A DNA stretch of 64,000 bases, taken from Escherichia coli (GTDB lineage Bacteria; Pseudomonadota; Gammaproteobacteria; Enterobacterales; Enterobacteriaceae). Position numbers and translations under genes: made by a program. Of the stretch, positions 55,813-63,858 are shown one piece after another; position 1 is the first letter of the stretch; every line of letters starts with the position of its first letter. The stretch lies in the NCBI RefSeq assembly GCF_022846255.1, contig NZ_AP025682.1, one strand, 5' to 3'. The notes below the pieces were generated by a model. The model was not told the origin of the DNA and searched no databases. It saw nothing but the letters and a program-made list of their open reading frames with translations.

Positions 55813-55873
55813 ACAACACCGCCCGCAGGCGGTGTTGTTCGTGGCCGGATAAGGCGTTTACGCCGCATCCGGC
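55813..55873. repeat. Perfect 11-bp-stem hairpin plus REP unit between lafB and lafA
   Basis: ACAACACCGCC-CGCA-GGCGGTGTTGT (55813-55838) followed by GCCGGATAAGGCGTTTACGCCGCATCCGGC (55844-55873). Confidence 0.6.
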
Positions 55874-55883
55874 AAGTCCGCCA

Positions 55884-56798
55884 TTACTGCAGCAGGCTGG
55901 AAACCATGCTGGACATGCTGTTGGACTGTTTCAGCATGGTGATGCCGGTCTGCATCAGCACCTGCTGTTTAGTCATGTTGGACGCTTCCGTCGCGTAGTC
56001 GGTATCCATAATGTTACCGATAGCGACTTCGGTGTTGTCCTGCATACTGGTCAGGTTATTAGCGGTGTCGTTCAGACGGTTGATAGACGCCCCCAGCTTG
56101 GACTGGATCTGCGAAACATCATCCATCGCGGTAGAAATGCTGGTGATCATCTGGTTAGCCGAGCCAGACGCAGTCAGCTCAGTACCGCCAGAAACGCCTG
56201 CGGTGCCAGTGGTGTCAGCCTGATCCGCACTGAAGGAGTTGCTGATAGCAGAAAGATCCGTCACCAGGGTATTCAGCTGGCTTGAAATATTCACGGTCAT
56301 GGTGTCGGAAGATTCCGCGCCCACCTGGAAAGTTACTGCGCTCTGGAACAGACCGTCAGTACCGGTGTTGCTGGTACCGGAAACACCGAACAGGTTGGTG
56401 CCGCCGTAAGTGGTGTTTTGCAGCATGTCAGACATCTGCTGACCCAGTTCATCGTATTCGTCCTGCATCGCCTGCAGATCGTCGTCGCTGTAGGTGCCGT
56501 TCGCTGCCTGAGTTGACAGGTCTTTCATACGACCCAGCACATCAGACATTTCGTCGAACATGCTGTCAGCGGTTTGCAGCATCGCGGTGGCATCATTGAT
56601 GTTGCTCAGCGCCACACCCATACCGCTGGACTGTGCTGTCAGACGGTTAGCAATTTGTTTGCCTGCGGCGTCATCGGCAGAAGAGTTAATCCGGTTACCC
56701 GTTGCCAGGCGTTCCATAGATGTAGACAGAGAAGAGCTGCTTTTACTGATTGCATTAACGGCGGCCATTGAGGCGTTATTGGTGTTAATAGATAACAT
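55884..56798 (-). CDS. lafA: Lateral flagellin
   Basis: 304 aa from MLSINTNNASMAAVNAISKSSSSL... to ...MLKQSNSMSSMVSSLLQ with AAGGAG SD (track ORF extends 22 codons upstream). Confidence 0.85.
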   Translation of the reverse strand: MLSINTNNASMAAVNAISKSSSSLSTSMERLATGNRINSSADDAAGKQIANRLTAQSSGMGVALSNINDATAMLQTADSMFDEMSDVLGRMKDLSTQAANGTYSDDDLQAMQDEYDELGQQMSDMLQNTTYGGTNLFGVSGTSNTGTDGLFQSAVTFQVGAESSDTMTVNISSQLNTLVTDLSAISNSFSADQADTTGTAGVSGGTELTASGSANQMITSISTAMDDVSQIQSKLGASINRLNDTANNLTSMQDNTEVAIGNIMDTDYATEASNMTKQQVLMQTGITMLKQSNSMSSMVSSLLQ

Positions 56799-57232
56799 GA
56801 TACTGCTCCTTGGGATTAATCGTTTTCGTTTCGATACCCTGTAAAAACGACACCTCAGGAGCAAACTTAAAATCGCCGTTAAAATTTTTTCGCCACGTAT
56901 TATCCGATGCCACTTTTAGCTAAAAAAAGCAGAGGTTAAATTCAGATAAAAAGATTATTAGCAATATCTGCCACATGGCCAGGAATCAAAATATGTCTTT
57001 ATCAAATGCTTGATATAGTTAAGATTGTCATCAATTAACGCGTTTTCTTCTCAATGTACTGATGCCAAAATTTACATTGCGTTGCAAATAGTACACGTTT
57101 AGCTATTGTGCCTGTCCTGTCATTTCGTTACATTTCCACGCCATATAGTGATTAAGAATAATCCTATTACCATAAAATATTAATTATCACGCAGAAAAAT
57201 CATCTTCTCAGGGACGTATAAGACTGTGCTTT

Positions 57233-58126
57233 ATGCAAAGCACTATCAGGAAACATTTATCCCTTGCTAAGGTAAACTCAACTATGAGTATTATTATCAA
57301 CAACTGGCGGATGGACCCGTCGCTTAATGCCTTAATACATTGCGAAACGGGTGAAACACGTCGTCTCGGCGAATACCATTTTATTTTGCTGGAAACATTA
57401 GCAAAAAATGCCGATGTGGTTTTATCGCGATCTTATTTATGTGCCGAAGTATGGAAGAACCGCATTGTCGGCGGTAACAGCCTGCCGACGGCGATCCACG
57501 CTCTGCGCGTTGCCATTGATGATGACGGCAAGCAACAGAACATTATTAAAACCATCCCGAAAAAAGGGTACCTGTGCAATAAAGAGTATGTGTCTTTGCC
57601 GGAGTCATCGCCTGCAGAAGCGCTGATTATTACCGACCAGATACAAGATACAGCCCCAGAAGAGATATCTTCGACAACACCGCCTGTACCTGTTAGAAAA
57701 AAACATAAAGGACTGATGGGGTTAGCGTTGGCCGCAGCTGTTATATTTATTGGCTCGACCGTGGGGTATTCACACTTGAAAAGTACACCTGACGCCCCGC
57801 AACTGGTAAAAGAGTCAATTAACAGTCCAAGAATAAAAATATTTCATTTAACTTCTGCTGGAGAAAATAATTCCGTACCGTTACTATCACAAACCCTCGC
57901 ACCAGGAAAAGACAAACTCGATAATTTATTGTCAGCGCATAATATGACAATGACAACCTATTATAAATATGTTCGTAACCGACTGGAGAGTGATATTGTT
58001 CTGCGCAACCAGTGCAATGGTAGCTGGCAATTAACCTTTAATGTGGAAGGTTGGCAGAACAGCGATATTAATAGCGCGATGTATCAGAATTTAGAGAAGT
58101 TGTTAAATACTGTGCAGAAATGCTGA
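57233..58126 (+). CDS. lafZ: ToxR/CadC-like membrane-anchored transcriptional regulator
   Basis: 297 aa; N-terminal OmpR/PhoB-type winged helix, one TM segment (GLMGLALAAAVIFIGSTV), periplasmic C-terminus; divergent from lafA. Confidence 0.65.
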   Translation: MQSTIRKHLSLAKVNSTMSIIINNWRMDPSLNALIHCETGETRRLGEYHFILLETLAKNADVVLSRSYLCAEVWKNRIVGGNSLPTAIHALRVAIDDDGKQQNIIKTIPKKGYLCNKEYVSLPESSPAEALIITDQIQDTAPEEISSTTPPVPVRKKHKGLMGLALAAAVIFIGSTVGYSHLKSTPDAPQLVKESINSPRIKIFHLTSAGENNSVPLLSQTLAPGKDKLDNLLSAHNMTMTTYYKYVRNRLESDIVLRNQCNGSWQLTFNVEGWQNSDINSAMYQNLEKLLNTVQKC

Positions 58127-58141
58127 TGAGTGCCAATATAT

Positions 58142-58178
58142 GCCGGATGCGACGCTAAACGCGTCTTATCCGGCCTAC
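58142..58178. repeat. REP (palindromic unit)
   Basis: GCCGGATGCGACGCTAAACGCGTCTTATCCGGCCTAC, canonical REP between lafZ and lafW. Confidence 0.7.
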
Positions 58179-61690: not shown

Positions 61691-61704
61691 GCAAAGCGCG
61701 CCCC

Positions 61705-62004
61705 TCATTTCCCCTTCGGCGACAACTGCTTCACAATCATCGCCGCAATCCCAATCCCGTGCTGCTGCGCCAGGGTGTTACACAACTCATCGTCATAAAA
61801 CCCCTGCATCATGCGCACCGAATCGCTGTTAAATGGGTTATCTTTCGAATCGAACAACTCGTTGGTTTTACGCATCTCTTTCAGCATGTTGCGTAAAAAA
61901 ATCGCCTCAAACTGTTCCGCGGCCTGCCTGATATCATTGGCCTGAACCTTCGGCCCCATTAACGCATCGCTGCCGTCAATCCCGCCGCTGCCGTTGATTT
62001 TCAT
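61705..62004 (-). CDS. lfgJ: FlgJ-like rod-binding protein (N-terminal domain only, no muramidase)
   Basis: 99 aa, ...AAEQFEAIFLRNMLKEMRK... Confidence 0.75.
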   Translation of the reverse strand: MKINGSGGIDGSDALMGPKVQANDIRQAAEQFEAIFLRNMLKEMRKTNELFDSKDNPFNSDSVRMMQGFYDDELCNTLAQQHGIGIAAMIVKQLSPKGK

Positions 62005-63119
62005 CAGATCACCTCCAGGTCGGCATCCAGCGCGCCCGCCTCATGCAGCGCCTGCAAAATCGACATAATGTCATCCGGCGTCGCGCCTAAACTGTTCAAC
62101 GCATTAACCAACGTTTTCAGGCTGCTCGACTCCGGCAAACTCACCACGCCCGGACGGGCATGATTCACCGCGATATTGCTCTGTGGCGTTACTGCCGTAC
62201 GCCCGCCCGCAAAGGCATTCGGTTGGCTGACGTTGCTGGTTTCGTTAATTGAGACAGTCAGGCTGCCATGCGACACCGCCGCCGCGTGCAGCGCGATGCC
62301 ATCGCCCATCACCACCGTACCGGTACGCGAGTTAAACACCACGCGGGCGCGGATTTTCTCCGCCTGCACCTGCACATCATCCAGTTGCGACATAAACGCC
62401 ACCCGCGCGCCGGGGCTGGTGGGCGCACGCACAGTGACGTTGGTGGAACTCTGCGCCGTGGCAATGCCGCCAAACGAGGCGTTGATCGCCGCCGCAATGT
62501 TGTTGGCGTCTTTAAACGACGGGCGTTTCAGGTTGAGCGTGATGGTGTCGCCCATCTGAAAATCGCTGGGGATCTCGCGCTCCACCGTCGCGCCGTTGGG
62601 AATTAACCCGGCGGTTGGCGTATTAACCGTTACGCTCGAACCGCTGGCCCCGGTGGCATTCATCCCGCCCACCACCACGCTGCCCTGCGCCAGCGCATAA
62701 ACTTCGCCATCCGCGCCGTGCAACTGGGTCAGCAACAAAGTGCCGCCACGAATACTTTTGGCATCGCCAATCGACGAAACGGTGACATCAATGGTCTGCC
62801 CGCGCGAGTACATCGGCGGCAGCGTGGCGCTCACCGCCACCGCGGCGACGTTTTTCACCTTCGGGTCGATTTTATTCGGCAGTTGCACGCCAAACTGGCG
62901 CAGCATATTGGTGATGGTCTGGTTGGTGAATTTGACCTGGTTTTTATCGCCCGTGCCGTCGAGGCCGACCACCAGGCTGTAGCCGACCAGTTGGTTTTCA
63001 CGCACGCCCTGTACGTTGACCAGCGATTCCAGCGATTGCGCCAGCGCCACGCCAGGTAGCGCCAGGCTCACGGTGATTACTGCGGCCTTTATCCAGTTTT
63101 GCATTGCACTCTCCGGCAT
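62004..63119 (-). CDS. lfgI: Flagellar P-ring protein, FlgI-like
   Basis: 371 aa with signal peptide; start overlaps lfgH stop. Confidence 0.9.
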
Positions 63120-63784
63120 TAAATCGGGAACAGAGGATGGTTAAACAGTCGCGTCAACCAGCCTGCGGCGTTGGCGTCGCTTAACGCGCCGCGTCCGGCA
63201 TAGGAGATGCGGGCATCGGCGATCCGCTGCGAGGAAACCGAGTTGTCGTTCTGGATGTCGTCGGCGCGCACCAGGCCGCTTAAGCGGATGTACTCATCGC
63301 CCTGGTTGAGGGTCAGCCATTTTTCGCCGCGAATTTCCAGGATGCCGTTAGGCTGCACCGCATGGACGGAAACGGTGATCTCCCCGCGCAGGCTGTTCTG
63401 CTGCTGGGAAGTGGCGCTGCCGTCAAAGTCGCGGTTGGCATCAATGGAGCCGGAAAGCTTATCTTTGGTGTGTCCAAAAATGGTCGGCGCGCCGATATCG
63501 ACGGTGTTGCTTTTGCCGAAGTTGGTTTTCGCCTGTTTGCTCGACTGGGTGGATTCTTCGAGGATCACCGTCAGGATATCGCCCACGCGGTAAGCCCGCC
63601 GGTCGGCAGTTAGCGACCAGTTGTAGCCGGTTTCAAACACGCCCCCGGCACGCCCGTCTGCCGGAGGCGGCGCTTCGGTGGTTGGTGGCGCAAAGTATGC
63701 GTCGTCTTTTTTGACCAGAATGGCCTGCGATTCACACCCGCTAAGCAGGGGAAGCAGCGCCACCAGCCAGAGATAATTTTTCAC
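63119..63784 (-). CDS. lfgH: Flagellar L-ring lipoprotein, FlgH-like
   Basis: Called from GTG ([19 protein letters not shown], lipobox LLSGC); the 25 codons the track adds upstream are read through a REP unit. Confidence 0.8.
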
Positions 63785-63821
63785 GTTCTGCCTGTTTAAA
63801 TACAGTGAGTTATGTGCTCTT

Positions 63822-63858
63822 GTAGGTCGGATAAGACGCCTCAGCGTCGCATCCGACA
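63822..63858. repeat. REP (palindromic unit) between lfgG and lfgH
   Basis: GTAGGTCGGATAAGACGCCTCAGCGTCGCATCCGACA. Confidence 0.7.

Follow-up and report, generated by a model that had tools for sequence, protein, structure and literature searches.

We describe here the repeat elements that lie between the genes of the Flag-2 (lateral flagellum) cluster in an Escherichia coli chromosome, together with the translation start of one of these genes, lfgH. The window, by which we mean the whole stretch of 64,000 nucleotides that was analysed, comes from contig NZ_AP025682.1 of RefSeq assembly GCF_022846255.1. The distal part of Flag-2, from lafB to lfgG, occupies 54.3-64.0 kb, as judged from open reading frames (ORFs), NCBIfam matches and the annotation of near-identical loci by the Prokaryotic Genome Annotation Pipeline (PGAP). 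Four of its intergenic gaps hold repeats, namely three solitary repetitive extragenic palindromic (REP) elements and one inverted pair of BoxC/TMECO elements. The best joint explanation of our results, which we regard as very probable, is that these are ordinary chromosomal repeats, tolerated as passengers whose regulatory effects, if any, are modest and replaceable, and that lfgH is translated from the GTG codon at 63784, giving a 221-residue lipoprotein precursor with its lipobox cysteine at position 17. The ATG at 63859, which is formed at the 5' end of a REP, would be an artefact of ORF calling.

The three elements, which we call REP1, REP2 and REP3 (see the table), have every property of E. 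coli REPs that can be tested. Each copy joins a head, G(C/T)CGGATGCG, to a tail, CTTATCCG(G/A)CCTAC, across a short variable stem-loop within 30-40 nt, and the heads of REP2 and REP3 read (G/T)CCGGATGCG or GTCGGATGCG. This layout is shared with the Y-type members of the E. coli REP and bacterial interspersed mosaic element (BIME) family, a high-copy family of extragenic repeats found just past stop codons, whose units are imperfect palindromes of 34-37 nt with head GCCGGATGCG or GTCGGATGCG and tail CTTATCCGGCCTAC. The copies in the window differ in that each site holds one REP, and in that the tail of REP1 is degenerate (CCAC rather than the usual CTAC, which is present in the corresponding copy of strain SWHEFF_68). 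All three form stable imperfect stem-loops, with hairpin energies of -20.8 to -23.6 kcal/mol and z-scores of -2.8 to -4.3 against shuffled sequences; the RNA hairpin of REP1 has -21.3 kcal/mol (z -3.6) and that of REP3 -20.8 kcal/mol, while the values for REP2 are -22.8 to -26.7 kcal/mol, whichever strand is folded. Annotated genes flank REP1 and REP2, and REP3 is extragenic once the GTG start of lfgH is accepted. In more than 5000 E. coli genomes, query segments restricted to the REPs, the variant form of REP3 among them, match unrelated loci. The three elements are non-coding members of the REP/BIME family, which in E. coli is associated with the RayT tyrosine transposase.

A search of the whole 64 kb with blastn-short and a hairpin regular expression caught these three REPs and no others. 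A degenerate REP pattern also matches REP3 and found nothing in 100 shuffles of the window. Simpler searches saw less: a REP pattern with a fixed loop caught REP3 alone, because loop lengths vary between copies, and a general repeat search did not group the three, owing to their shortness and to indels between them. The Rfam signal consists of sub-threshold hits to naRNA4 (the REP325-derived RNA, RF02564) exactly at the three REP sites, plus one weak chance match; with 42 bits at REP1 and 23-33 bits at the others against a threshold of 59.5, the elements are not assigned to that family. Nor can the window REPs be called BIMEs, which consist of two or more REPs in alternating orientation with defined linkers, because each site is solitary. 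A preliminary description of this DNA had reported canonical REPs at these three places, and all of them are present, its limits and ours agreeing to within 1-3 nt. A short palindrome at 41224-41246 (TGCCGGATGTGATGCATCCGGCA) also has a REP-like head just past a stop codon; it falls short of a complete REP and is perhaps no more than a simple 3' hairpin.

The preliminary description overlooked a fourth filled junction, the 205-nt gap between lfgJ and lfgK. This gap holds a BoxC/TMECO element of type B and one of type A-mm, arranged as the usual inverted A+B pair. Both match the regular expression CCCTCNCCC-N3-6-GGGNGAGGG-N3-GGGNGAGGG, and both are identical to sequences published for K-12 (PMC4666352), so that the elements at 61582-61691 differ from the known intrastrand-triplex repeats (BoxC, PIT or TMECO) in location alone. 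Folded together, the two elements reach -86 kcal/mol (z -5.8). Earlier work on these elements found no detectable effect on expression and described them as marking variable regions (PMC4666352).

What occupies these four junctions changes from strain to strain, and it is for this reason that we favour the passenger reading. At lfgG-lfgH, among the 1271 E. coli genomes that hold the junction, about 871 have a single REP, 205 have a composite REP-linker-REP and 194, including strain 042, have a BoxC pair without any REP; about 31% of Flag-2-bearing E. coli thus carry an arrangement other than the single REP. The lafA-lafB gap contains a single REP in some strains, and in others a BIME of four REPs or a Y-linker-Z pair. 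The lfgJ-lfgK gap contains Z2-Y BIMEs in most strains, and the BoxC allele seen in the window is rare (33 complete genomes). Alternating Y and Z REPs make true BIMEs at lafA-lafB in L002 and at lfgJ-lfgK in L002-L005, which come from other strains. Between lafZ and lafW there may be a REP, a REP with a remnant helix-turn-helix (HTH) gene (strain SWHEFF_68), or a complete cassette of a RelE/ParE toxin and an HTH antitoxin without a REP. This cassette replaces REP2 in 72 complete genomes, again including 042, and the segments concerned (2727-3509 of locus L005; 6551-7333 of locus L086, from 042) are homologous to 58127-58184 of the window. Its site matches variable region VR2, a cargo hotspot that De Maayer et al. 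2020 (PMC6993521) placed between lafW and lafZ. That paper deals with the cargo-gene variable regions of flag-2 only; we checked it for REPs in flag-2 and found neither 'repetitive' nor 'intergenic' in its text.

In most other genera, the lfgG-lfgH gap measures 24-34 nt and holds no repeat element. The gaps that we looked at in other species (L006-L026, L053 and L063) include Citrobacter-type REP-like hairpins (AAATGCCGGATGG...CCATCCGGCA) and unrelated GC hairpins. Larger occupants were also seen at this junction: triple composite REP units of 468 nt in L010, an insertion of 118 nt in Yersinia alsatica and insertions of up to 235 nt in an Enterobacter sp.

REPs inside flagellar operons are nothing new, as a REP in K-12 illustrates. 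In its primary flagellar (flag-1) system, a REP with the same core as REP1 (GCCGGATAAGGCGTTTACGCCGCATCCGGC) sits in a gap of the rod-gene operon; the junction there is flgF-flgG, whereas that of REP3 corresponds to flgG-flgH, and the system is paralogous. K-12 flag-1 also has a small hairpin after flgG.

The start of lfgH matters here because the longest ORF (246 codons) has the GTG at 63784 as codon 26, and the codons ahead of it run through REP3. Five independent lines, namely the PGAP annotation, the family profile, the lipobox, the junction alleles and the predicted structure, point to the GTG. PGAP annotates a 666-bp flgH, the GTG form, in all six E. coli strains inspected, 042 among them, and the exact 221-residue protein is the RefSeq 'MULTISPECIES' FlgH, present on at least 1000 contigs. 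The NCBIfam FlgH equivalog NF009072 scores 431.6 bits (cutoff 323), its positions 1-220 aligning to residues 27-246 of the long ORF. The GTG form thus resembles other FlgH L-ring lipoproteins over the full length of the profile, with the lipobox LSGC and Cys17 following an n-region of the MK(N/K) type, and a rule-based check recognised a type II signal peptide with its lipobox cysteine. Every LfgH from 80 loci/species has a lipobox, and the modal position of the cysteine is 17, as the GTG start gives it. The homologous start codon is ATG in most genera and GTG in the group of Escherichia, Citrobacter and Pseudocitrobacter.

The junction itself tells the same story. Across the 80 species, lfgG and lfgH are separated by 33 nt in the median and in many cases by 24-34 nt, which leaves no room for an N-terminal extension. 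The E. coli alleles that lack the single REP agree, in that there is no in-frame start upstream of the GTG in the representative BoxC-pair (L005) or composite (L004) allele; in the composite allele a 1-nt indel throws the extension out of frame. The 14 nt ahead of the GTG, AAACAGGCAGAAC, are kept in all E. coli alleles compared. Structure at ribosome-binding sites hampers initiation. Base pairing in the REP3 stem begins with the G of ATG 63859, so the would-be initiation region at the foot of that stem is predicted to be sequestered, whereas the region of the GTG is nearly unstructured. From these comparisons we infer that lfgH starts at GTG 63784. The preliminary description had noted that the longest ORF reads 25 codons through the REP, as it does from 63859 to 63784, and had put the true start at this GTG with its lipoprotein signal peptide; the PGAP annotation of six strains, the NF009072 alignment and the prevailing Cys17 of 80 species bear it out. 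Its wording that the REP displaces the annotated start is right for annotations made outside PGAP, which have the protein at 246, 242 or 266 residues, and wrong for RefSeq, which already uses the GTG.

Some observations nevertheless weigh against our account. One of them concerns lfgH: the upstream ATG has a Shine-Dalgarno-like AAGG 4 nt before it, whereas the GTG has a weak AGG 6 nt upstream, and this would explain why some gene callers pick the ATG. An alternative in which translation begins at ATG 63859 and REP3 encodes a 25-residue N-terminal extension can point, in addition, to the longest ORF, to a standard ATG codon and to several public annotations whose 246-residue entries are named flagellar L-ring protein. 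Part of the AAGG is contributed by the lfgG stop codon. Against this alternative, the extension is missing from the FlgH profile and from all 80 other species, and it would put 25 Arg-rich residues before the signal peptide and shift the lipobox cysteine to position 42. About 31% of E. coli alleles either lack it or have something else in its place, and in the composite the frame is shifted. The ATG lies at the foot of a -20.8 kcal/mol hairpin, and PGAP rejects it. The public forms of 246, 242 and 266 residues each read through whichever repeat is present: the 246-residue form begins MSDATLTRL..., the 242-residue form has a shortened version of the same extension, and the 266-residue form begins MRNVTTRTGQSPRPFGERAGG..., which is unrelated to the REP-derived peptide. 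Given the five lines above, these long forms are, as far as sequence can tell, artefacts of longest-ORF calling. We reject the 246-residue protein, and a start at ATG 63859 is close to refuted, its probability being negligible.

With lfgH read from its GTG, the question that remains is what the repeats do to the flagellar messages. Transcribed with their neighbours, the REPs would fold into hairpins of about -21 to -23 kcal/mol, 8-15 nt past stop codons. The distance from stop to stem is 8 nt for lfgG and REP3, 10 nt for lafA and REP1, 15 nt for lafZ and REP2 and, on the opposite strand, 10 nt for lafW and REP2. REP hairpins shield upstream mRNA from exonucleases (literature summarised in PMC12306157), and an upstream gene whose stop codon is followed by a REP at less than 16 nt can be translated less (Liang et al. 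2015, as cited in PMC12306157). A stable hairpin 8-15 nt past the stop, within or at the end of an operon, is what Flag-2 shares with the documented cases of malE-malF (mRNA stabilisation) and of nrdAB-type damping (within 15 nt of the stop); the effect in Flag-2 is drawn by analogy alone. By that analogy, the hairpins could block 3'-to-5' exonucleases and stabilise the upstream message, and could mildly reduce translation of the upstream gene. The suggestion in the preliminary description that REP insertion modulates the stoichiometry of flagellar components is therefore mechanistically reasonable, since all REP stems lie no more than 15 nt past stop codons. It is weakened by the fact that about 31% of genomes have BoxC pairs or composite REPs instead of the REP, and by the lack of a REP in most other genera. 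We consider such tuning plausible, unsupported and probably small in effect.

A stronger version would make the REPs selected regulators that set the output of neighbouring flagellar genes, by stabilising upstream mRNA and by damping translation termination of lfgG, lafA, lafZ and lafW. The four stop-to-stem distances fall in the range for which Liang et al. 2015 (cited in PMC12306157) reported reduced upstream translation, and two further observations speak for this version and against a purely passive role: a REP of some form is retained at lfgG-lfgH in about 85% of Flag-2-bearing E. coli, and the GTG-start genera related to E. coli have unrelated GC-rich hairpins there, a structured element of some kind following lfgG in Escherichia, Citrobacter, several other lineages and K-12 flag-1. 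From these hairpins and that of K-12 flag-1, it may be that a structure after lfgG is under some selection and that 'pure passenger' is too dismissive, a prospect to which we assign a low probability. Yet junction occupants are freely swapped among strains, between REP, BIME, BoxC pair and toxin-antitoxin cassette, most genera manage with a gap of 24-34 nt and no repeat, and BoxC/TMECO elements had no detectable effect on expression (PMC4666352). Dedicated regulation by the REPs therefore seems unlikely to us. We hold it equally doubtful that the REP hairpins, together with a perfect 11-bp hairpin just 3' of REP1, act mainly as transcription terminators or attenuators that split Flag-2 into units, for example by ending lafA before lafB. 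Three successive stem-loops do follow lafA, the last with a U-run, and a bidirectional 3' structure would be useful at REP2, where two genes converge. BIMEs, moreover, have been reported as Rho-dependent attenuators. Against this, all three REPs lack a U-tract behind them and are absent from the hits of the terminator scan, REP3 sits within a series of rod and ring genes that need co-expression, and terminator-like matches in the region are no commoner than in shuffles (8 observed, 9.4 expected). A GC-rich stem with a direct U-run was found in the scan only at 55765-55781; the REPs and the 11-bp hairpin have no proper U-run, and we reject the REPs as intrinsic terminators for want of it. The 11-bp hairpin, which the preliminary description had seen beside REP1, is present, was not listed by the simple terminator scan and is kept in six of six E. 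coli alleles compared; it is likely a 3'-end or terminator-type stem of lafA with a weak U-tract.

A further idea goes beyond the passenger reading. The Flag-2 junctions (lafA-lafB, lafZ-lafW, lfgJ-lfgK, lfgG-lfgH and, in 042, lfgF-lfgG) might be recurrent sites of repeat exchange, where families that share stable structure but no common origin (REP/BIME, BoxC/TMECO and, in other genera, GC hairpins) take each other's place as alternative alleles, where selection favours any strong hairpin after lfgG or lafA rather than a given sequence, and where the neighbouring rayT may have seeded REPs locally. We think this improbable, more so than either regulation or termination by the REPs. If it were true, the alleles would be natural expression variants of a lateral-flagellum system which itself recombines across species. 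In 042 a gene for a REP-associated tyrosine transposase, rayT, adjoins Flag-2 at 438 bp from lfhA and is flanked by REPs (L087 21747-22244), a place outside the window. BoxC pairs occur three times in the scanned Flag-2 region of 042, beside several REP/BIME sites, one of which, in the lfgF-lfgG gap, is a BIME of three REPs; for comparison, E. coli genomes had a median of about 5 places that matched a query with one BoxC pair, and local enrichment is possible.

The coordinates of the repeats, stem-loops and genes are collected in the table.

Table. Features of the distal Flag-2 region, in window coordinates
Feature	Position	Strand	Remarks
lafB (FliD)	54362-55678	-	
Terminator-like stem-loop	55755-55781	-	CGGAAACACCATTTCCG then CCCCTTTTTC; lafA-lafB gap; consensus scan, pattern match alone
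Perfect 11-bp hairpin	55813-55838	-	mRNA strand ACAACACCGCC-TGCG-GGCGGTGTTGT; -21.9 kcal/mol, z -5.3
REP1, solitary, Y type	55841-55874	-	TGCCGGATGCGGCGTAAACGCCTTATCCGGCCAC; lafA-lafB gap; Y consensus 31/31, blastn-short E 3.5e-13
lafA, lateral flagellin, 304 aa	55884-56798	-	NF033376 lat_flg_LafA_1, 667 bits (cutoff 440); stop 55884-55886
lafZ-type winged-helix regulator, CadC/ToxR-like	57284-58126	+	Convergent with lafW; PGAP-equivalent start; stop 58124-58126
REP2, solitary	58142-58178	+	GCCGGATGCGACGCTAAACGCGTCTTATCCGGCCTAC; gap between convergent lafZ and lafW
lafW, 325 aa, Flag-2-specific putative hook-associated protein	58185-59162	-	Stop 58185-58187; naming after PMC6993521
lfgL	59179-60132	-	
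lfgK	60123-61499	-	
BoxC/TMECO type B	61582-61615	-	CCCTCTCCCTGTGGGAGAGGGCCGGGGTGAGGGC; letter-for-letter K-12 TMECO no. 1 and no. 4 in Table 1 of PMC4666352
BoxC/TMECO type A-mm	61656-61691	+	CCCTCGCCCCTTTGGGGAGAGGGTTAGGGTGAGGGG; letter-for-letter K-12 TMECO no. 7 and no. 11 in Table 1 of PMC4666352
lfgJ	61705-62004	-	
lfgI	62004-63119	-	
lfgH, FlgH L-ring lipoprotein, GTG form, 221 aa	63119-63784	-	Signal peptide 63734-63784; lipobox LSGC, Cys17 at 63734-63736
lfgH, longest ORF from ATG, 246 aa	63119-63859	-	
REP3, solitary, GTCGGAT...ATCCGAC variant	63822-63858	-	TGTCGGATGCGACGCTGAGGCGTCTTATCCGACCTAC; lfgG-lfgH gap
Upstream ATG of lfgH	63857-63859	-	Last spacer A joined to the initial TG of REP3; first codon of the 25-codon extension MSDATLRRLIRPTRAHNSLYLNRQN through REP3
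lfgG 3' end, FlgG rod protein	63866-64000	-	Leaves the window; stop 63866-63868; translation ends DMLQYISQTL*; PGAP flgG at homologous loci

NCBIfam matches, together with the PGAP annotation of loci nearly identical to this one, support the identities of lafB, lafA, lafZ, lfgL, lfgK, lfgJ, lfgI and lfgH. The NCBIfam search gave no match for lafW, whose orthologues are named unevenly by PGAP as 'hypothetical protein', 'flagellar hook-associated protein' or even 'flagellar biosynthesis protein FlhF'. Other start codons in the cluster are ambiguous for reasons unrelated to the repeats: the longest lafZ ORF begins at ATG 57233 rather than at the PGAP-equivalent start, the first ATG of lfgI (63104-63119) lies 15 nt upstream of the PGAP start, and the longest lfgL ORF has 317 residues against 309 in the PGAP form.

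The first 20 kb of the window, with fdeC, hyxB, ykgF and rclA, are 99.2% identical to many E. coli chromosomes. The Flag-2 genes (54362-64000) are mosaic: taken gene by gene, the best match among 5426 complete E. coli genomes is only 93-98% identical, and identities to Escherichia whittamii, Pseudocitrobacter and a metagenome-assembled genome named 'Citrobacter sp.' fall in the same range. The LfgH protein is 98-99% identical across the genera Escherichia, Pseudocitrobacter and Citrobacter. Together, these values suggest cross-species recombination of the locus. Near the start of the window, two 33-nt arms at 218-250 and 491-523, about 80% alike in both direct and inverted relation, may form a small palindromic repeat or one resembling a miniature inverted-repeat transposable element.

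The REP and BoxC elements and LfgH all belong to well-described families, and the lfgH start is already correct in RefSeq. The locus adds one more case of REP, BIME and BoxC polymorphism at operon junctions. It also carries a caution for annotation: a REP or BoxC element just upstream of a gene can donate an in-frame ATG and so mislead callers that take the longest ORF. For the biology of the lateral flagellum, the natural REP, composite REP and BoxC alleles are ready for testing the effects of hairpins on flagellar gene expression.

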